Sequence record: MT884006.2
DNA: 64,000 nt
Direction: 5' to 3' (one strand)
Source: Escherichia phage vb_EcoM_bov9_1
Of this stretch, positions 163-6,259 are shown in pieces (positions within the stretch are counted from its first letter, which is position 1; each line of letters starts with the position of its first letter). A program made the position numbers and the translations under genes. A model generated the notes under the pieces. That model was given only the letters and a program-made list of their open reading frames with translations, searched no databases and had not been told where the DNA came from.

Positions 163-618
163 TTAAAAGAGGCTGTTCATTATTCGGTAAAGTGAAGGAC
201 CCATCACATATTGCCACTGAGTACGAGGAATAAGAGCAAAAGCATCCATCTCTGGAATCATAACGCCATCTTTATTTTCAAAATAAGACTCGCAATGGCA
301 ATTTCTAAACATCTCATGCTCTACTGGAATCGTATAATAAAATAACTGCAAGTCTTTATTACTAGAATATTTAAATACACCTAGGTCTTCTAGAAGATCT
401 GGATTATAATTGTTAAAACCAGTCTCTTCTAAACATTCTCTTCGTGCTGCATCTAGTGCGCTTAAATCAGAATTTTCTACGCGGCCCTTTGGAATATCCC
501 AGCGATGTGCCATCATTCCAGGCTTACGAGAACCAGTAACTCGTCCCATAAATAGGTCTTTATCTTCTGTCATAAAGATAATACCAGCTGATAATGTTTT
601 CATTTTAATTTCCTGCAT
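163..618 (-). CDS. nudE: Nudix hydrolase NudE
   Basis: Nudix box GRVENSDLSALDAARRECLEETG in 151 aa ORF; the second ATG at 603 (AGGAAA SD) may be the true start. Confidence 0.85.
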   Translation of the reverse strand: MQEIKMKTLSAGIIFMTEDKDLFMGRVTGSRKPGMMAHRWDIPKGRVENSDLSALDAARRECLEETGFNNYNPDLLEDLGVFKYSSNKDLQLFYYTIPVEHEMFRNCHCESYFENKDGVMIPEMDAFALIPRTQWQYVMGPSLYRIMNSLF

Positions 619-1088
619 TCAGTGATAAAGTTATTTAAATTTTGAGTATATTTCTTTTCATCAAAAATCTTTTGTTGTCTGCGTAAACGCCATGGCATTT
701 CAATGAACACACACCATATCCCAGATAATATTGCTGTTGTCAAAATATTAACAAATATAGTACAAAGAACCCAATCTCCTATTCTGTCCATTGGATTTTT
801 TCCAAAGAAGTAAAATACGAATGATGACACAGGAAGACTAATGATATACCACAGAAGCATATTCTTATCCGTAAACCATTCAGCGTTCGTTAACTTAGCA
901 CGACCGTTTTGAATACACACGAATTTATCGTCTGTTATAGTAGATGGCTTAGCTGCTTGATATCCCATTCTAAACTCCCTAATCAACAAATTTTTCATAT
1001 CTTCGGAACAACCATTCCAGTCAACTCTATCAACTGAAATGCCATCGTCCCCATCATCTAAATCATACCAGCGAGTTTTTAAAATCAT
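600..1088 (-). CDS. Hypothetical membrane protein (soluble N-terminal part plus two predicted TM helices)
   Basis: 162 aa ORF; hydrophobic segments LLWYIISLPVSSFVFYFF and ILTTAILSGIWCVFI; stop overlaps nudE start. Confidence 0.5.
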   Translation of the reverse strand: MILKTRWYDLDDGDDGISVDRVDWNGCSEDMKNLLIREFRMGYQAAKPSTITDDKFVCIQNGRAKLTNAEWFTDKNMLLWYIISLPVSSFVFYFFGKNPMDRIGDWVLCTIFVNILTTAILSGIWCVFIEMPWRLRRQQKIFDEKKYTQNLNNFITECRKLK

Positions 1089-1447
1089 TTGATTTTCCTA
1101 CAATTACTCACAAACTCTTCCATTGATTCTTTTTCAATATAAGACATGTAGCTATTATATTCTTTTAATTGTATTTTGTAATCTTTTTTTCTTTGCCAAT
1201 TTATTTTAAAATTATCATAATGAAAATATAACATAGTACCAAAGAATGAAAATAATGAAATCGCTATAGTATAACGAAGTTCACTCCAAACCTCTGTTAT
1301 AATTACTGTGCCGTCAATGTTTAAAATAAAACAGTCAATTAACAATCCAATAAGACTACCCGCAAGAGCTGCAAATACTGATACAGCAAGAATTAATAGT
1401 GCCTCAGGAAACGAATATTTGACTTTATTTAATTTTGGCTTTTGCAT
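1085..1447 (-). CDS. Hypothetical small membrane protein
   Basis: 120 aa ORF with two hydrophobic helices; ATGA stop/start overlap with downstream gene. Confidence 0.5.
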   Translation of the reverse strand: MQKPKLNKVKYSFPEALLILAVSVFAALAGSLIGLLIDCFILNIDGTVIITEVWSELRYTIAISLFSFFGTMLYFHYDNFKINWQRKKDYKIQLKEYNSYMSYIEKESMEEFVSNCRKIK

Positions 1448-1842
1448 CGTGATTCCTTAACAAATTTCATAATTTCATTAAATTCATACATATCAAGTTT
1501 AAGCTGATGTTCTTTTTTAATCTTTTTGCACTGGGCTTTCCAATCACGTACACGTTTACGATAGTGTCTTCCTTGATACCAGTATCCTACCCAATTTACA
1601 GGTATTAATAAAAGCGGAACTACCAATGGAAGAATTAGTGTTGCTCCAAATATTACACCAGATTCAATATCAGTCATAACGTCTATAACCATTCCAGCAA
1701 TCAGCAGAATCACAAATGATACAGCTACCACAGGACCTATTAATACATCAGTAGAAATTATCTGACGCTTTAATTCATACTTCAACGGTTTACTTGGAAG
1801 GTATAGTGATGGTTTTGACATATTCTCTACATTCCTTAACAA
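1429..1842 (-). CDS. Hypothetical small membrane protein
   Basis: 137 aa ORF with two hydrophobic helices; start uncertain (M1 or M8). Confidence 0.5.
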   Translation of the reverse strand: MLRNVENMSKPSLYLPSKPLKYELKRQIISTDVLIGPVVAVSFVILLIAGMVIDVMTDIESGVIFGATLILPLVVPLLLIPVNWVGYWYQGRHYRKRVRDWKAQCKKIKKEHQLKLDMYEFNEIMKFVKESRCKSQN

Positions 1843-2398
1843 ATTTTTCTAGTAATAAATCACTTTCAAAATTAGGATTTTCCACTAATTTATCAAAAAG
1901 ATCATCAACAATATTCAAGATATTTCTTTTACTAAGAATACGTTTATTTTCATGCTTCGTTTCAGAATCAACTATAAGAGTAAAGAAATATTTCTTTCCC
2001 TGAAATTTTACTGTAGTATCAATATAGAATAAATTTGACTTTTGTAAGTTACGTTTAAACCATGCGTCACTTAAACTATAAACACCGAGATAATCAAAAT
2101 CGTCGTTTAAATAACAAACTGTCCATTCAGGAGAAATGAAATCAGTAAATTCAACATCAAAATCGCATGTTAATAAATGAATTGATTCAATACTGTTAAT
2201 AAGTATTCCAGGACGTATTAAAGACTTTTTACCTCTAGAAAATCTTCCAGAAAGACTTTCATCAGTTTCATATGAAGAACCCCAATAATAATTACGTCCT
2301 TCTGCCATACGTTTAAGAGCATTTAATAATTGGTCTGGAACATCAACCTGTCTTTGAAACTCTTCAAACATTGAATTGAAATCACTTTGCATTTTCAT
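1790..2398 (-). CDS. Hypothetical protein
   Basis: 202 aa ORF, same strand and frame continuity as the early gene run; no recognisable motif. Confidence 0.5.
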   Translation of the reverse strand: MKMQSDFNSMFEEFQRQVDVPDQLLNALKRMAEGRNYYWGSSYETDESLSGRFSRGKKSLIRPGILINSIESIHLLTCDFDVEFTDFISPEWTVCYLNDDFDYLGVYSLSDAWFKRNLQKSNLFYIDTTVKFQGKKYFFTLIVDSETKHENKRILSKRNILNIVDDLFDKLVENPNFESDLLLEKFVKECREYVKTITIPSK

Positions 2399-2419
2399 TC
2401 CTATTTACTCCAAGTAATA

Positions 2420-2433
2420 GGGGCCGAAGCCCC
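2420..2433 (-). repeat. GGGGC-UUCG-GCCCC hairpin, copy 1 of 3
   Basis: Perfect 5 bp stem with UUCG tetraloop on the transcribed (minus) strand, 7 nt after stop of the 2440..3033 gene. Confidence 0.6.
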
Positions 2434-2439
2434 TTATCA

Positions 2440-3033
2440 TTATTTCAGAGAATTAATATATTCCTGAACATCGGCAGAGGTAGTTTCAACCCCAGAAATA
2501 TTACCATTAAAGGTTTCAACTCGAGCAAGAGTATCTTCAATATCAACCTTAGTCAGCGCTGCAATTTCAACTACATCATCAGCAGTACTAATTCCAAGTG
2601 CATTCGCTGCGCGAGTTTCACGGATATATTCCAATTTAACTGCAAGTTCTTGGCGAGCATCATCTAACTCAACTACTTTCTTAGCGATTTCAATTCGCAT
2701 TTCAGTATAACCATCAGCTTTAGTAGTCAGCTGTTCAGCTGTTCGACGATATAGCAAACCGAGTTTAGCATGCATTGTTACATCTTGACCTTCGGAAAGA
2801 AGCTTGCGAATTTCACGCTCTTTTGATTTAGCCTGTTTATTCTTTTCAACGATAAGTTCACGAATACGTTTTTCTTCATTAATAGATTTAACAGAAGCAG
2901 TTTTTAGATCTTTAATCTTATCAAGTAGTTTTGCTGCCGCAGCAGTATACTGTTCTTCAACAGATAGATTTTTAGCCATAGCAGAACCAAGTTTAGTGCG
3001 AATAAACTCAACAATTTTCTTCAGTGTGTTCAT
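2440..3033 (-). CDS. Hypothetical coiled-coil protein
   Basis: 197 aa ORF rich in heptad-like K/E/R/L/A stretches; loose PspA-like flavour only. Confidence 0.5.
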
Positions 3034-3090
3034 AGTATTTCCTTAGGTTGGTATAATTAGATAATATCACGTTTCTAATAGATTGTAAAC

Positions 3091-4683: not shown

Positions 4684-4856
4684 TCAAAAACGCTACTCGG
4701 CTTATGGCAAAGATATTTCCTCGAATCGATAATTCGGTGCGCCGTTTCTGCTGTGATATAAGGGGACATTAACAAAACATAAAGATTTATTAATGCCAGT
4801 CCTTAAACAGGGAACATCAGTCCGACGACTTGCCGGTAGCGACCCGGCTTCTTGTC

Positions 4857-4932
4857 TGGTCGAGGCAGTAGGGATCGAACCTACGACCCAGGACTTAGAA
4901 GGTCCTTGCTCTTCCTTCTGAGCTATGCCTCG
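4857..4932 (-). tRNA. tRNA-Arg (anticodon UCU)
   Basis: Manual cloverleaf: acceptor CGAGGCA/TGCCTCG, T-loop, anticodon loop CUUCUAA, CCA encoded. Confidence 0.85.
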
Positions 4933-4936
4933 TATT

Positions 4937-5011
4937 TGGCGGACGTGATAGGATTCGAACCTATAACCAATCGCTTAACAGGCGATCGCTCTGCCATTGA
5001 GCTACACATCC
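4937..5011 (-). tRNA. tRNA-Asn (anticodon GUU)
   Basis: Manual cloverleaf with all four arms regular, T-loop TTCGAAT, anticodon loop CUGUUAA, CCA encoded. Confidence 0.75.
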
Positions 5012-5015
5012 AAAT

Positions 5016-5102
5016 TGGTGGGGAGTGGTGGAGTCGAACCACCCGAGTCGCAATGACAATGGATTTACAGTCCACACCGCTACCTCTACGGGATAACTCC
5101 CC
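5016..5102 (-). tRNA. Putative type II tRNA-Tyr (anticodon GUA) with a weak D-stem
   Basis: 7 bp acceptor, T-arm GGTGG-TTCGACT-CCACC, anticodon arm with loop CUGUAAA, 15-nt variable arm resembling bacterial tRNA-Tyr; D-stem has only 2 clean pairs. Confidence 0.55.
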
Positions 5103-5111
5103 AAATTAATT

Positions 5112-5186
5112 TGGTGGCCCTGGGTGGAATTGAACCACCATCTGGCGATTATGAGTCGCTTGCTTGAACCTTCCAGCTACAGGGCC
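5112..5186 (-). tRNA. tRNA-Ile (anticodon CAU, presumably lysidine-modified)
   Basis: Manual cloverleaf; anticodon loop CUCAUAA; CCA encoded. Confidence 0.8.
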
Positions 5187-5187
5187 T

Positions 5188-5264
5188 TGGTGCTGATTGA
5201 CGGAATCGAACCGCCGACCTTCTCATTACAAGTGAGTTGCTCTACCTACTGAGCTAAATCAGCA
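5188..5264 (-). tRNA. tRNA-Thr (anticodon UGU)
   Basis: Manual cloverleaf; anticodon loop CUUGUAA; T-loop TTCGATT. Confidence 0.8.
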
Positions 5265-5268
5265 AAAC

Positions 5269-5358
5269 TGGCGGAGGCGATAGGATTTGAACCTATGAGT
5301 CGCTCCGGCGACTGCCGGTTTTCAAGACCGGTGCATTAAACCACTCTGCCACGCCTCC
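5269..5358 (-). tRNA. tRNA-Ser (anticodon UGA), type II
   Basis: Reverse complement GGAGGCGTGGCAGAGTGG...CCGGTCTTGAAAACCGG...GGTTCAAATCCTATCGCCTCCGCCA matches the T4 tRNA-Ser architecture. Confidence 0.9.
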
Positions 5359-5364
5359 AAATAT

Positions 5365-6015
5365 TTATATATTGTTAATTTGATTTAGAATTCTTTTTGC
5401 TTGAGTATGACTTACGCCAATATGCTTAGCATATTTAGATAATTCACCACGTTTAGAAAAATCATATAATTTAGAAATTTCTATTCTTCTTTTTCTTTCA
5501 TCCGCAGAAACTTTTGCTTCGTTTGCTTTTGCTATTTTACGTTTAGCTTCTTGAGAATGAGTTTTACCAGCAAAGCCGTTCTTCATTAATCCATTTGAAG
5601 ACCATCCTTTTAATTTTCCGTTAGAATGTGCCTTTTTAACACCCAATGAAATTAATTCGCGTTGCTGATCTGTCATAGGATAATTATTTATATGATCCCA
5701 TCCACCTTCACCTCCAAGTTTTAAATTATACACATCTGGTCTATTTAAAAACTCTTCTGTGACAATATTTTTCTCGGCTTCAAGCATAGATTCTTTATCA
5801 TCAAAATACTCTAATATTTCTTTAGAAAAATTTTCTATACCATATTTATCTTGGGCTCTTTTTAATAATTTACCAGAACCCATATATCCATCATCTAAAT
5901 TTTCGGTAGAATGCACACCAATATAAATTTTATTATTAATTTTATTTGTTATTTTATAAAGATAAAAATGCATATCAGTCCCTAATAAAGAACTGAGCGT
6001 CTCACGACGAGTCAT
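5365..6015 (-). CDS. segB: GIY-YIG homing endonuclease (SegB-like) embedded in the tRNA cluster
   Basis: N-terminal motif YLYKITNKINNKIYIGVH...GYMGSG typical of GIY-YIG Seg/I-TevI enzymes plus a basic C-terminal domain; the internal ATG at 5973 is a likelier start than 6015, which lies 5 nt from tRNA-Gly. Confidence 0.8.
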   Translation of the reverse strand: MTRRETLSSLLGTDMHFYLYKITNKINNKIYIGVHSTENLDDGYMGSGKLLKRAQDKYGIENFSKEILEYFDDKESMLEAEKNIVTEEFLNRPDVYNLKLGGEGGWDHINNYPMTDQQRELISLGVKKAHSNGKLKGWSSNGLMKNGFAGKTHSQEAKRKIAKANEAKVSADERKRRIEISKLYDFSKRGELSKYAKHIGVSHTQAKRILNQINNI

Positions 6016-6019
6016 AAAT

Positions 6020-6093
<74 letters not shown>

Positions 6094-6098
6094 AAATT

Positions 6099-6185
6099 TG
6101 GTGCGAGAAGTGGGACTCGAACCCACAAGGAAATCATTCCGCAGCATTTTAAGTGCTGTGCCTTTACCAATTTGACCATTCTCGC
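6099..6185 (-). tRNA. tRNA-Leu (anticodon UAA), type II
   Basis: Acceptor GCGAGAA/TTCTCGC, long variable arm, anticodon loop CUUAAAA. Confidence 0.8.
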
Positions 6186-6187
6186 GC

Positions 6188-6259
6188 TGGGAATAAAGGA
6201 CTCGAACCTTTGCATCCTGGAATCAAAATCCAGTGCCTTACCAACTTGGCTAATTCCCA
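6188..6259 (-). tRNA. tRNA-Gln (anticodon UUG), CCA not encoded
   Basis: Acceptor TGGGAAT/ATTCCCA, T-arm AAAGG-ACTCGAA-CCTTT, anticodon loop UUUUGAU; abuts tRNA-Leu. Confidence 0.75.

Follow-up and report, generated by a model that had tools for sequence, protein, structure and literature searches.

Three overlapping genes for small membrane proteins in a Tequatrovirus, which by sequence are the orthologues of T4 e.2, e.3 and e.4, end in a conserved C-terminal peptide, and the repeated junctions that encode this peptide are the breakpoints of precise whole-gene losses. The genes are already known; they have long been annotated in T4 and are uncharacterized, and the match to T4 keeps the finding from being counted as new. 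What is new is a single point, and a modest one: the conserved C-terminal peptide of e.2–e.5 at repeated junctions of whole-gene gain and loss. No lytic phage has been studied better than T4, yet about half of its genes, e.2–e.4 among them, have no known function; a cluster-specific end-peptide in common with e.5, rapidly evolving hairpins and in-frame cassette loss together give T4 workers a concrete and cheap handle. In the reading that we favor, to which we would give roughly even chances as a whole, e.2–e.4 are non-essential proteins, anchored N-in/C-in in the membrane, which display a common cytoplasmic helix and behave as dispensable early cassettes.

Gene identities and the coupled array

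All features described here lie on the minus strand of the analyzed stretch, 64 kb of Tequatrovirus DNA (the window), and the three ORFs of the initial annotation are indeed present there. The e.2 orthologue (600..1088; 162 aa) matches phrog_2203 over its full length at 1.7e-77 and occupies the same position as T4 e.2, and its homologues at 85–95% identity carry precomputed PF26896 assignments. The e.3 orthologue (1085..1447; 120 aa) matches phrog_2330 at 4e-58, and the e.4 orthologue (1429..1821) matches phrog_2604 at 1.6e-70, both over their full length, the latter also belonging to PF26873 (Phage_T4_Y06O, the e.4 family). The lengths first given for e.2 and e.3 stand, while the 137 aa given for e.4 results from counting from a TTG at 1842, in frame and further upstream; from the conserved ATG at 1821, which is annotated in T4 and other phages, the length is 130 aa. 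Upstream lies the e.5 orthologue (1790..2398; 202 aa; phrog_2607 at 7.9e-109), a soluble protein with the C-terminus EKFVKECREY, and downstream lies nudE (163..603), identified as a Nudix hydrolase by PF00293 at 1.1e-13 and by annotation. Protein identity of e.2, e.3 and e.4 to their T4 counterparts is 82–89%, and the gene order e.6-e.5-e.4-e.3-e.2-nudE-e and the overlaps are the same as in T4, with conservation also in the annotated teqhal record.

In T4, the three genes carry UniProt labels of the Y06M/N/O type (‘uncharacterized protein in nudE-segB region’), fall into PHROGs 2203, 2330 and 2604 and into PF26896 and PF26873, and are annotated just as ‘conserved hypothetical, predicted membrane protein’, in agreement with the initial statement that they have no assigned function. 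A literature search by gene name returned no functional study of these genes, only omics and CRISPRi tables. That at least one of the three ORFs is not a real gene is hardly conceivable. Such a view could cite the absence of an e.4 annotation in MT884007.2 and the frameshifted e.2 of reference T4, where two frameshifts cut the protein to 102 aa versus the intact 162 aa here, but tblastn finds e.2, e.3 and e.4 intact in hundreds of genomes (533–666 records), at one place per genome each; moreover, the ribosome-binding sites (RBSs) are properly spaced, and the T4 proteins are listed as detected by mass spectrometry in the supplements of PMC9697503. An IMG/VR scan gave only nine loci, all of them T4-like, and an exhaustive HMMER search of 1.84 billion proteins with the e.4 profile gave six matches, all e.4 or its fragments and fusions.

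The translational coupling claimed at the outset is evident from the overlapping stops and starts, which share ATGA at e.2/nudE and again at e.3/e.2, and extend over 19 nt at e.4/e.3 and 32 nt at e.5/e.4. The genes e.5, e.4, e.3, e.2 and nudE form one chain, with e.5 as the first cistron and nudE as the last; the nudE ATG at 603 has AGGAAA 7 nt upstream, while no Shine-Dalgarno (SD) sequence precedes the alternative ATG at 618. The 5′ boundary of this coupled block is a GGGGC-UUCG-GCCCC hairpin between e.6 and e.5 (2419..2434), found by scan and annotated as a stem_loop in the T4 record L13089.1; a T-run is missing from the coding strand. The nearest promoter-like site upstream of the block, annotated or predicted, is a sigma-70-like early promoter (TTTACA-17-TATTAT, TG extended; 3061..3089) upstream of e.6, and L13089.1 annotates a −35/−10 pair at the same place before msp3 (= e.6). 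Within the e.5–nudE stretch itself, the only promoter-like matches that a scan turned up were weak (9–10 of 12) and lay in coding sequence, the coding strand had no hairpin resembling a terminator, and L13089.1 likewise annotates no promoter or hairpin between e.5 and nudE.

Membrane hairpins and cytoplasmic tails

Two hydropathy scales agree on exactly two hydrophobic segments in each of e.2, e.3 and e.4, as initially predicted, and a hydropathy search of nudE, e.5 and e.6 found none. In e.2, an acidic, soluble N-terminal domain of 76 aa precedes the two-helix hairpin, made of residues 77–97 (798..860; KD 19-residue peak 1.81, Hessa sum 1.6) and 105–129 (702..776; KD peak 2.18, Hessa sum −0.4), and a basic tail with NFITECRKLK as its last residues. 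In e.3, a basic N-tail (MQKPKL...) leads into predicted helices at residues 15–40 (1328..1405; KD peak 2.55, Hessa sum −1.9) and 57–76 (1220..1279), the second of marginal hydrophobicity (KD about 1.3, Hessa sum 3.3), followed by a basic tail ending EFVSNCRKIK. The e.3 N-terminus was also considered as a signal peptide or lipoprotein signal and was ruled out on inspection, its hydrophobic stretch being about 22–26 residues long and lacking a lipobox. In e.4, a basic N-tail (MSKPSL...) precedes predicted helices at residues 24–46 (1684..1752; KD peak 2.73, Hessa sum −0.7) and 55–76 (1594..1659; KD peak 2.57, Hessa sum 0.2), and the protein closes with a cytoplasmic helix, long and basic, that has KFVKESRCKSQN at its end.

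The basic nature of the tails is upheld by charge counts of +9/−4, +10/−7 and +15/−6 for e.2, e.3 and e.4, respectively. The loops between the helices, predicted to be periplasmic and 7–16 residues long, are acidic or neutral and without positive charge, and basic residues cluster in the N- and C-terminal segments; from the positive-inside rule, we infer that all three proteins would insert into the inner membrane with both ends inside (N-in/C-in). AlphaFold2 models of e.4 and e.2 are both low in confidence. That of e.4 (pLDDT 65) has helices at residues 24–48, 54–106 and 111–129, and a Foldseek search of the PDB with it gave nothing meaningful (best E 4.4). The model of e.2 has helices at residues 69–96 and 99–161, but its pLDDT of 49.8 makes the N-domain uninterpretable. 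PDB sequence searches with e.2, e.5 and e.6 found no match.

Conservation is unevenly distributed along these genes. At the protein level it is 0.73–0.77 in the transmembrane segments versus 0.83–0.95 in the tails, and at the DNA level 0.75 in the hairpins versus 0.87–0.98 at the junctions; the membrane hairpins evolve fastest, and the junctions and cytoplasmic tails slowest. The initial annotation had held the relatedness of the three proteins to be not established, and alignment bears this out for the membrane part: with the last 12–14 residues trimmed, hhalign gives probabilities of at most 37%, confined to the MxKPxL N-terminus. Pairwise BLASTP among e.2C, e.3, e.4 and the Mosigvirus versions found only weak matches dominated by hydrophobic bias. 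Homology of e.2–e.4 is undetectable beyond the cytoplasmic tail. Between tails alone, hhalign reports 78% for e.3–e.4 over 40 columns, 84% for e.3–e.2 over 19 columns and 38% for e.5–e.2. Considered as one paralogous family of tandem duplicates, the proteins share architecture, termini and junctions, and lack full-length similarity.

The C-terminal peptide and its junctions

The six-frame translation of the 64 kb matches the pattern F-[VI]-x-[EN]-C-[RK] in just three places, each of them the C-terminal end of e.5, e.3 or e.2, compared with 0.21 matches expected from shuffles and 0.005 expected near ORF ends. The peptide reads F-V-K-E-C-R in e.5 (TTT GTT AAG GAA TGT AGA; 1826..1843), upstream of the e.4 ATG; F-V-S-N-C-R in e.3 (TTT GTG AGT AAT TGT AGG; 1097..1114), where AGGAAA is the SD for e.2; and F-I-T-E-C-R in e.2 (TTT ATC ACT GAA TGC AGG; 612..629), where AGGAAA is the SD for nudE. 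In e.4, the variant F-V-K-E-S-R (TTT GTT AAG GAA TCA CGA; 1447..1464) contains AAGGAA, the SD for e.3. The last residues of all four proteins, e.5 through e.2, form a helix of the pattern hydrophobic-x-x-F-[VI]-x-[END]-[C/S/I/V]-[RK], and the motif cysteine is not essential, since S, I or V takes its place in e.4. A repeat search further identified an exact 16-nt direct repeat, AAATTTGTTAAGGAAT, with one copy at the e.4/e.3 junction (1452..1467) and another, at 100% identity, at the e.5/e.4 junction (1831..1846). The sequence AAAAAUUUGUUAAGGAA may resemble the RegA operator. The occurrence of the motif in e.5, a soluble protein encoded upstream, lies outside the set of three proteins in which it was first noticed.

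The initial annotation attributed the shared ending to the SD and start of the next gene being read in frame. Part of this holds, for the DNA encoding the peptide doubles as the RBS of the next gene, and every copy in the window overlaps an SD-like AAGGAA or AGGAAA 5–10 nt before the next ATG. Taken to its limit, the same account would make the ending a mere by-product of translational coupling, the proteins being unrelated and the peptide without a role; the junction DNA is indeed the most conserved of the region, as double constraint would predict, and nothing similar is left once the last 12–14 residues are trimmed. Within one genus, part of the nucleotide conservation of the motif certainly comes from the overlapping RBS and next-gene start, and at the 94–98% identity seen among Tequatroviruses the peptide and RNA constraints are inseparable. 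Nonetheless, we consider the by-product account improbable, because 18 other SD-containing coupled junctions in the 64 kb window lack the motif and have unrelated endings. Likewise, the place of the SD within the motif differs from gene to gene: it covers K-E (AAGGAA) in e.5 and e.4 but R-K (AGGAAA) in e.3 and e.2, and in Gapriver e.2 it has moved to E-E (GAGGAA). The peptide is retained in Mosigvirus, Gaprivervirus and Dhakavirus (four genera with Tequatrovirus) despite such shifts and codon changes, the arginine being kept while its codon varies among AGG, AGA, CGA and CGT. For example, in e.5 of Gaprivervirus and Dhakavirus the motif lies eight codons upstream of the next start (in Gapriver, the e.4 ATG), and the SD (GAGG/GGGG) is separate from it, and in Mosigvirus e.5 a change of K to M destroys AAGGAA, yet E-C-R-E-Y is retained. 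Finally, an RBS has no need of the hydrophobic residue at −3 or of the F-[VI] pair.

The same junctions mark the points at which genes have come and gone. Many Tequatroviruses have precisely lost e.2, and in at least 43 records e.3 and nudE are contiguous; compared with Gaprivervirus, Dhakavirus lacks e.4. A hybrid junction in L009 joins TGCAGGAAA to TTAAAATGA, and in Dhaka e.5 is fused to e.3 at AAAGAGGTTCAAAATG. These exchanges are in-frame and keep the translational coupling, a small example of how coupled accessory-gene operons can expand and contract without breaking translation, and the natural deletions and fusions support the dispensability of e.2–e.4.

These observations are consistent with a mechanism in which each hairpin of e.2–e.4 would serve mainly as an anchor, with the conserved cytoplasmic terminal helix as the functional surface. 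The amphipathic face of this helix (L/M/I, F, V/I and C at i, i+3, i+4 and i+7) probably docks a common partner, which might be another of these proteins, e.5 or a host protein. The array may have arisen through tandem duplication by unequal exchange at the junction, a duplication read from the termini only, since homology of the hairpins is undetectable. Its members would be individually dispensable accessory cassettes that act early in infection, on the cytoplasmic side of the host membrane, in a role such as host takeover or envelope defense. As a more specific and tentative possibility, rather doubtful as it stands, the terminal helix [L/M/I]-x-x-F-[V/I]-x-E-C-[R/K] could be a dedicated docking peptide through which e.5 and up to three anchors (e.4, e.3 and e.2) engage the same cytoplasmic partner. 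If so, the array would be a modular, recombination-prone device for tethering or sequestering, early in infection, some factor of host or phage at the inner membrane, and the junction would serve three purposes: as a peptide, as a ribosome-binding site and as the place where in-frame recombination adds or removes cassettes.

Functional context and known systems

T4 Imm, Sp and RI are small T-even proteins located in or at the inner membrane, made early and dispensable in the laboratory. The initial annotation pointed to factors of this kind, and e.2–e.4 could be imagined as lysis-timing or superinfection-exclusion factors working with the endolysin, as do Imm, Sp, RI and holin regulators. Like Imm and Sp, the three come from a T-even phage, are made early and are small proteins of the inner membrane; they are co-transcribed towards gene e, and their hairpins and loops vary as arms-race surfaces would. 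We find this role unlikely, however, as no match in PHROG, Pfam, NCBIfam or PADLOC points to an immunity, spackle, holin or antiholin family. Specifically, no Imm or Sp family appeared among the PHROG matches at E≤0.01 or the Pfam matches at E≤1, PADLOC models gave none against e.2–e.6 at E≤1, and scans of e.2–e.6 with Pfam (in a copy without PF26873 and PF26896), NCBIfam and PADLOC produced none above cut-offs. The periplasmic loops of e.2–e.4 leave little to act on an incoming phage, and the genes are individually lost in many natural phages. The adjacency to the endolysin and Nudix genes is synteny and not a functional link: JS09 (Mosigvirus) carries unrelated genes after e.3, with e.2 and nudE absent from the 3 kb examined, and in Gapriver and Dhaka an insert of about 3.2 kb separates e.3 from e.2-nudE-e. 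The current understanding of lysis and of the endolysin and Nudix genes is unchanged by these findings.

Data from T4 fit the favored reading of e.2–e.4 as dispensable early cassettes. Their RNAs are classed as early in the supplements of PMC9697503, which, together with the missing family match, argues against holins, antiholins or spanins. Knock-down by CRISPRi-ART is scored ‘Not Fit’, that is, without fitness effect, in the supplements of PMC11879866, but since gene e is likewise scored ‘Not Fit’ in that screen, it is insensitive at this locus.

Compared with Imm, Sp and RI, then, e.2–e.4 show no sequence or profile similarity; moreover, Sp and RI act via periplasmic domains, whereas the conserved part of e.2–e.4 is predicted to be cytoplasmic and their periplasmic loop is tiny. 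Another comparison is with the Psp membrane-stress system, of which the block might be a phage version, with coiled-coil e.6 as PspA and e.3 and e.4 as PspB and PspC. The likeness is superficial: a helical e.6 of about 200 aa is followed by small inner-membrane proteins with cytoplasmic helical tails, as in E. coli PspB and PspC beside their coiled-coil protein, and some databases label e.3 and e.4 ‘sulfurtransferase’, recalling PspE. Such a relationship is very unlikely indeed, and effectively refuted at the sequence level by hhalign, in which the e.6 family against E. coli PspA gives a probability of 0.2%, and e.3 and e.4 against PspB, PspC and PspD at most 0.5%, except for 19.5% between e.4 and PspB, which reflects a hydrophobic helix and a basic patch. 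Even at E≤1, e.6 has no match to Pfam PspA_IM30, a rhodanese domain is likewise missing, and PspB and PspC are single-pass proteins, unlike the two-helix e.2–e.4.

A further parallel concerns the junctions. The PeSL (‘promoter-early stem-loop’) elements that Arbiol et al. reportedly described in 2010 are said to be mobile regulatory cassettes of T4-type phages, and the likeness lies in short boundary repeats that, in plastic T4-type regions, would act as recombination sites shuffling small early genes. The e.5–nudE array has no promoter or stem-loop between its cassettes and falls outside PeSL; its repeat lies instead inside the coding sequence, where it spans the codons of the C-terminal peptide together with the RBS and the start of the next gene.

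Identity and neighbourhood of the e.x genes

On the basis of gene order, strand and position, the three ORFs at 600-1842 are orthologues of T4 e.2 (600-1088), e.3 (1085-1447) and e.4 (1429-1821). All genes of the block lie on the minus strand and, of those listed, e.6 (2440-3033) is transcribed first, followed by e.5 (1790-2398), e.4, e.3, e.2, the Nudix gene nudE (163-603) and the lysozyme gene e, of which only the start (up to 129) is included. The e.4, e.3 and e.2 products match phrog_2604 (E 1.6e-70), phrog_2330 (E 4e-58) and phrog_2203 (E 1.7e-77) over their full length, and database relatives are assigned to PF26896 and PF26873 (Phage_T4_Y06O), two recent Pfam families named for uncharacterised T4 proteins. 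Over its first 3.1 kb, the window matches the Tequatrovirus vb_EcoM_bov10K1 (MT884007.2, 64001-67100) at 100% identity and many other T4-like phages at 94-98%.

The initial annotation was correct in seeing three small membrane-protein ORFs, but these are long-known T4 genes. That they have no assigned function agrees with the T4 annotation of all three as "conserved hypothetical, predicted membrane protein" (PMC9697503, PMC11879866 supplements) and with a knock-down table listing their function as unknown (PMC11879866 supplements). Of the proposed lengths (162, 120 and 137 aa), that of e.4 counts from a TTG in frame; from the ATG at 1821, which is the conserved start, it is 130 aa. In MT884007.2, e.4 is unannotated (gap between 65447 and 65790), the ORF being intact and conserved. 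The nudE start also varies between records (146 or 151 aa; 603 or 618, minus strand): at 603, the ATG shares an ATGA with the e.2 stop and has AGGAAA 7 nt upstream, and the ATG at 618 lacks a Shine-Dalgarno (SD) sequence. Finally, database names include "sulfurtransferase" and "DNA primase" for e.3/e.4 homologues (P0002, P0012, P0057 and others) and "host specificity protein" for e.6. No rhodanese, primase or tail-fibre domain was detectable, so these names seem to be mis-annotations passed from record to record.

Adjacency to the endolysin and Nudix genes is real in the window but varies between genera. For example, Mosigvirus JS09 has an e.6-e.5-e.4-e.3 block followed by unrelated small genes, with e.2 and nudE absent from the 3 kb examined, and in Gapriverviruses and Dhakaviruses ~3.2 kb of other genes separates e.3 from e.2-(orf)-nudE-e. 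These gene orders argue that the adjacency is synteny and not evidence of shared function.

Upstream of the block lies a tRNA cluster (Arg, Asn, Tyr, Met, Thr, Ser, Gly, Leu; ~4800-6200, minus strand) with an inserted homing-endonuclease gene; T4 likewise has a tRNA cluster with such a gene (segB) at this place, although its tRNA set differs. In a 489-kb E. coli contig (GCA_025336695.1, JAODFN010000001.1), a T4-like genome passes into host genes (LysE, LysR, DEAD helicase) immediately behind the phage's glycyl-radical (grcA-like) gene; the contig is probably chimeric, assembled across that shared gene.

Membrane topology and expression

Hydropathy analysis with Kyte-Doolittle 19-residue windows and with the Hessa scale bore out two hydrophobic segments each in e.2, e.3 and e.4, the second of e.3 being marginal, and found none in the neighbours nudE, e.5 and e.6. 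The loops are short (7, 16 and 8 residues) and carry no net positive charge; e.3 and e.4 have basic N-tails, and the basic C-tails previously described carry charges of +9/-4, +10/-7 and +15/-6. From this distribution, the positive-inside rule predicts N-in/C-in hairpins with cytoplasmic tails. AlphaFold2 placed helices at 24-48, 54-106 and 111-129 of e.4 (pLDDT 65) and at 69-96 and 99-161 of e.2 (pLDDT 50); the models were too weak for fold comparison, the best Foldseek match having an E of 4.4. Some e.4 alleles (P0132-P0135) have a wholly different hairpin sequence between N- and C-tails identical to those of the window, and an e.3 allele (P0036) has a 4-residue indel in its periplasmic loop relative to the window, pointing to mosaic replacement of the membrane/periplasmic part or to diversifying selection on it.

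The proposed translational coupling holds: e.2/nudE and e.3/e.2 overlap at ATGA, e.4/e.3 by 19 nt and e.5/e.4 by 32 nt, each overlap with an SD-like sequence 5-10 nt upstream. A scan for promoters and hairpins placed sigma-70-like promoters upstream of e.7 and e.6, and found only weak promoter-like matches (9-10/12), inside coding sequence, from e.5 to nudE. It also found a perfect tetraloop hairpin, GGGGC-UUCG-GCCCC, in the e.6-e.5 interval (2419-2434); this has no T-run on the coding strand and probably acts in RNA stability or processing, not as a strong terminator. Both the promoters and the hairpin are likewise annotated in the old T4 entry L13089.1 (msp1-msp8), which has none between e.5 and nudE. 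In T4, e.2-e.6 RNAs are classed as early; of the proteins, all of which have been detected, e.4 and e.5 are early, e.2 and e.6 middle and e.3 late (PMC9697503 supplements). Genome-wide dCas13d knock-down scored e.2-e.6, with function listed as unknown, as "Not Fit"; gene e was likewise "Not Fit" (PMC11879866 supplements), so this screen is insensitive at the e.x locus.

The shared ending and the junctions

In the window, e.5 ends in ...LLEKFVKECREYVKTITIPSK, e.4 in ...IMKFVKESRCKSQN, e.3 in ...MEEFVSNCRKIK and e.2 in ...LNNFITECRKLK. The strict pattern F-[VI]-x-[EN]-C-[RK] has three matches in the six-frame translation of the 64 kb, each at one of these C-terminal ends, against 0.21 expected from shuffles (0.005 close to long-ORF ends). 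The initial annotation had explained the shared E/N-C-R-K by the SD and next start being read in frame. SD overlap is indeed a second constraint, with AAGGAA on the K-E codons of e.5 and e.4 and AGGAAA on the R-K codons of e.3 and e.2, but it does not account for the motif. An SD and the next ATG fall within the last codons of 21 of the window's 74 ORFs of at least 80 aa, and at the 18 coupled junctions outside the e.x cluster the endings are unrelated to the motif; coupling alone therefore does not generate it. In JS09, e.5 ends in ...EQFIMECREY, where K to M destroys AAGGAA, e.4 in ...MEFVKEIRCKS and e.3 in ...ENFIKECRK. In Gapriver- and Dhakaviruses, e.5 ends in ...NRFIAECREY, with the e.4 start eight codons on behind its own GAGG or GGGG; e.4 ends in ...EEFIKEVRNGTA, e.3 in ...ETFIKECKS, and a distant e.2 orthologue (31-34% identity) in ...NSFIEECRK, with Arg as CGT and the SD GAGGAA on E-E codons. 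Since the arginine is kept through AGG, AGA, CGA and CGT, we conclude that the C-terminal peptide itself is under selection. The spacing of its residues (hydrophobic at -3, F, V/I, C or small hydrophobic at +4) would fit an amphipathic helix face.

Profile-profile comparison (hhalign), using family alignments that took in other genera, gave probabilities of 78% for e.3 and e.4 (40 columns, cytoplasmic tail), 84% for e.3 and e.2 (final 19 residues) and 38% for e.5 and e.2 (final 15 residues). With the last 12-14 residues trimmed, no pair exceeded 37%, and only an MxKPxL start was common to e.3 and e.4. Pairwise BLASTP among e.x proteins was uninformative, tblastn matched each of e.2, e.3 and e.4 to one place per genome, and the e.4 profile, run exhaustively with HMMER against 1.84 billion representatives, returned only e.4, its fragments and one fusion. 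The earlier caution about relatedness across the membrane parts thus stands, and what the e.x proteins have in common is their termini, i.e., the junctions. Among six Tequatroviruses, hairpin-coding DNA is least conserved (~75% invariant columns) and the junctions most (87-98%); in e.3 and e.4 proteins, tails (0.83-0.95) are more conserved than hairpins and loops (0.73-0.77).

The e.5/e.4 and e.4/e.3 junctions have in common an exact 16-nt repeat, AAATTTGTTAAGGAAT. In a Tequatrovirus without e.2 (L009), the end of e.3, ...GATTGCAGGAAA|TTAAAATGA, continues directly into nudE and is a hybrid of the e.3/e.2 and e.2/nudE junctions; contiguous e.3-nudE occurs in at least 43 phage records, including RB32, RB33, PP01 and PST. 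Dhakaviruses lack e.4 and join the e.5 tail to the e.3 start at AAAGAGGTTCAAAATG, matching the junctions on either side of e.4 in Gapriverviruses. In addition, phiE142 has lost e.3, UFV05 carries an in-frame e.4::e.2 fusion at TCCTGTG microhomology (read from the window sequence), one e.4 variant lacks its hairpin, and e.2 of reference T4 is doubly frameshifted. The e.x genes are therefore individually dispensable in nature. In reference T4 (NC_000866, 2980-3470, equivalent to window 600-1088), the two frameshifts are compensating and leave a 102-aa product with the first helix only and, in frame, a remnant (e.2a and e.2b in the T4T annotation); e.2 is intact in the window. LR597657.1 (Escherichia phage T4_ev240, H154), whose name marks it as a T4 derivative, shows the contiguous e.3-nudE arrangement without e.2, unlike reference T4.

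A probable coupled cassette array

Most likely, e.2, e.3 and e.4 are early, non-essential, N-in/C-in inner-membrane anchors whose conserved working end is the basic cytoplasmic tail and terminal amphipathic helix, common also to soluble e.5, in a translationally coupled cassette array that grew and shrinks by exchange at the coding junctions repeated along it. They may plausibly act at the cytoplasmic membrane face, in taking over the host or in competition at the level of the envelope. The earlier comparison with superinfection-exclusion and lysis-regulation factors found no support, and no support linked e.2-e.4 to lysis, Imm/Sp-type exclusion, known defence families or a Psp-like system, the last also considered and rejected for the block. 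The initial reading was thus partly right, sound in its caution over the membrane parts and insufficient in its SD-only account; the present analysis adds a better explanation of the ending that the proteins share and of how the array evolved. In Mosig-, Gapriver- and Dhakaviruses (loci L004 3357-4151, L005 3191-4441, L016 2155-3421 and L017 1648-3110), e.3 is followed by three to six small soluble paralogues in tandem (RB69ORF139c-like), each ending W-V-[SA]-S-S-x-x-C, and, like the e.x array, these form a tandem family with a conserved C-terminal peptide.
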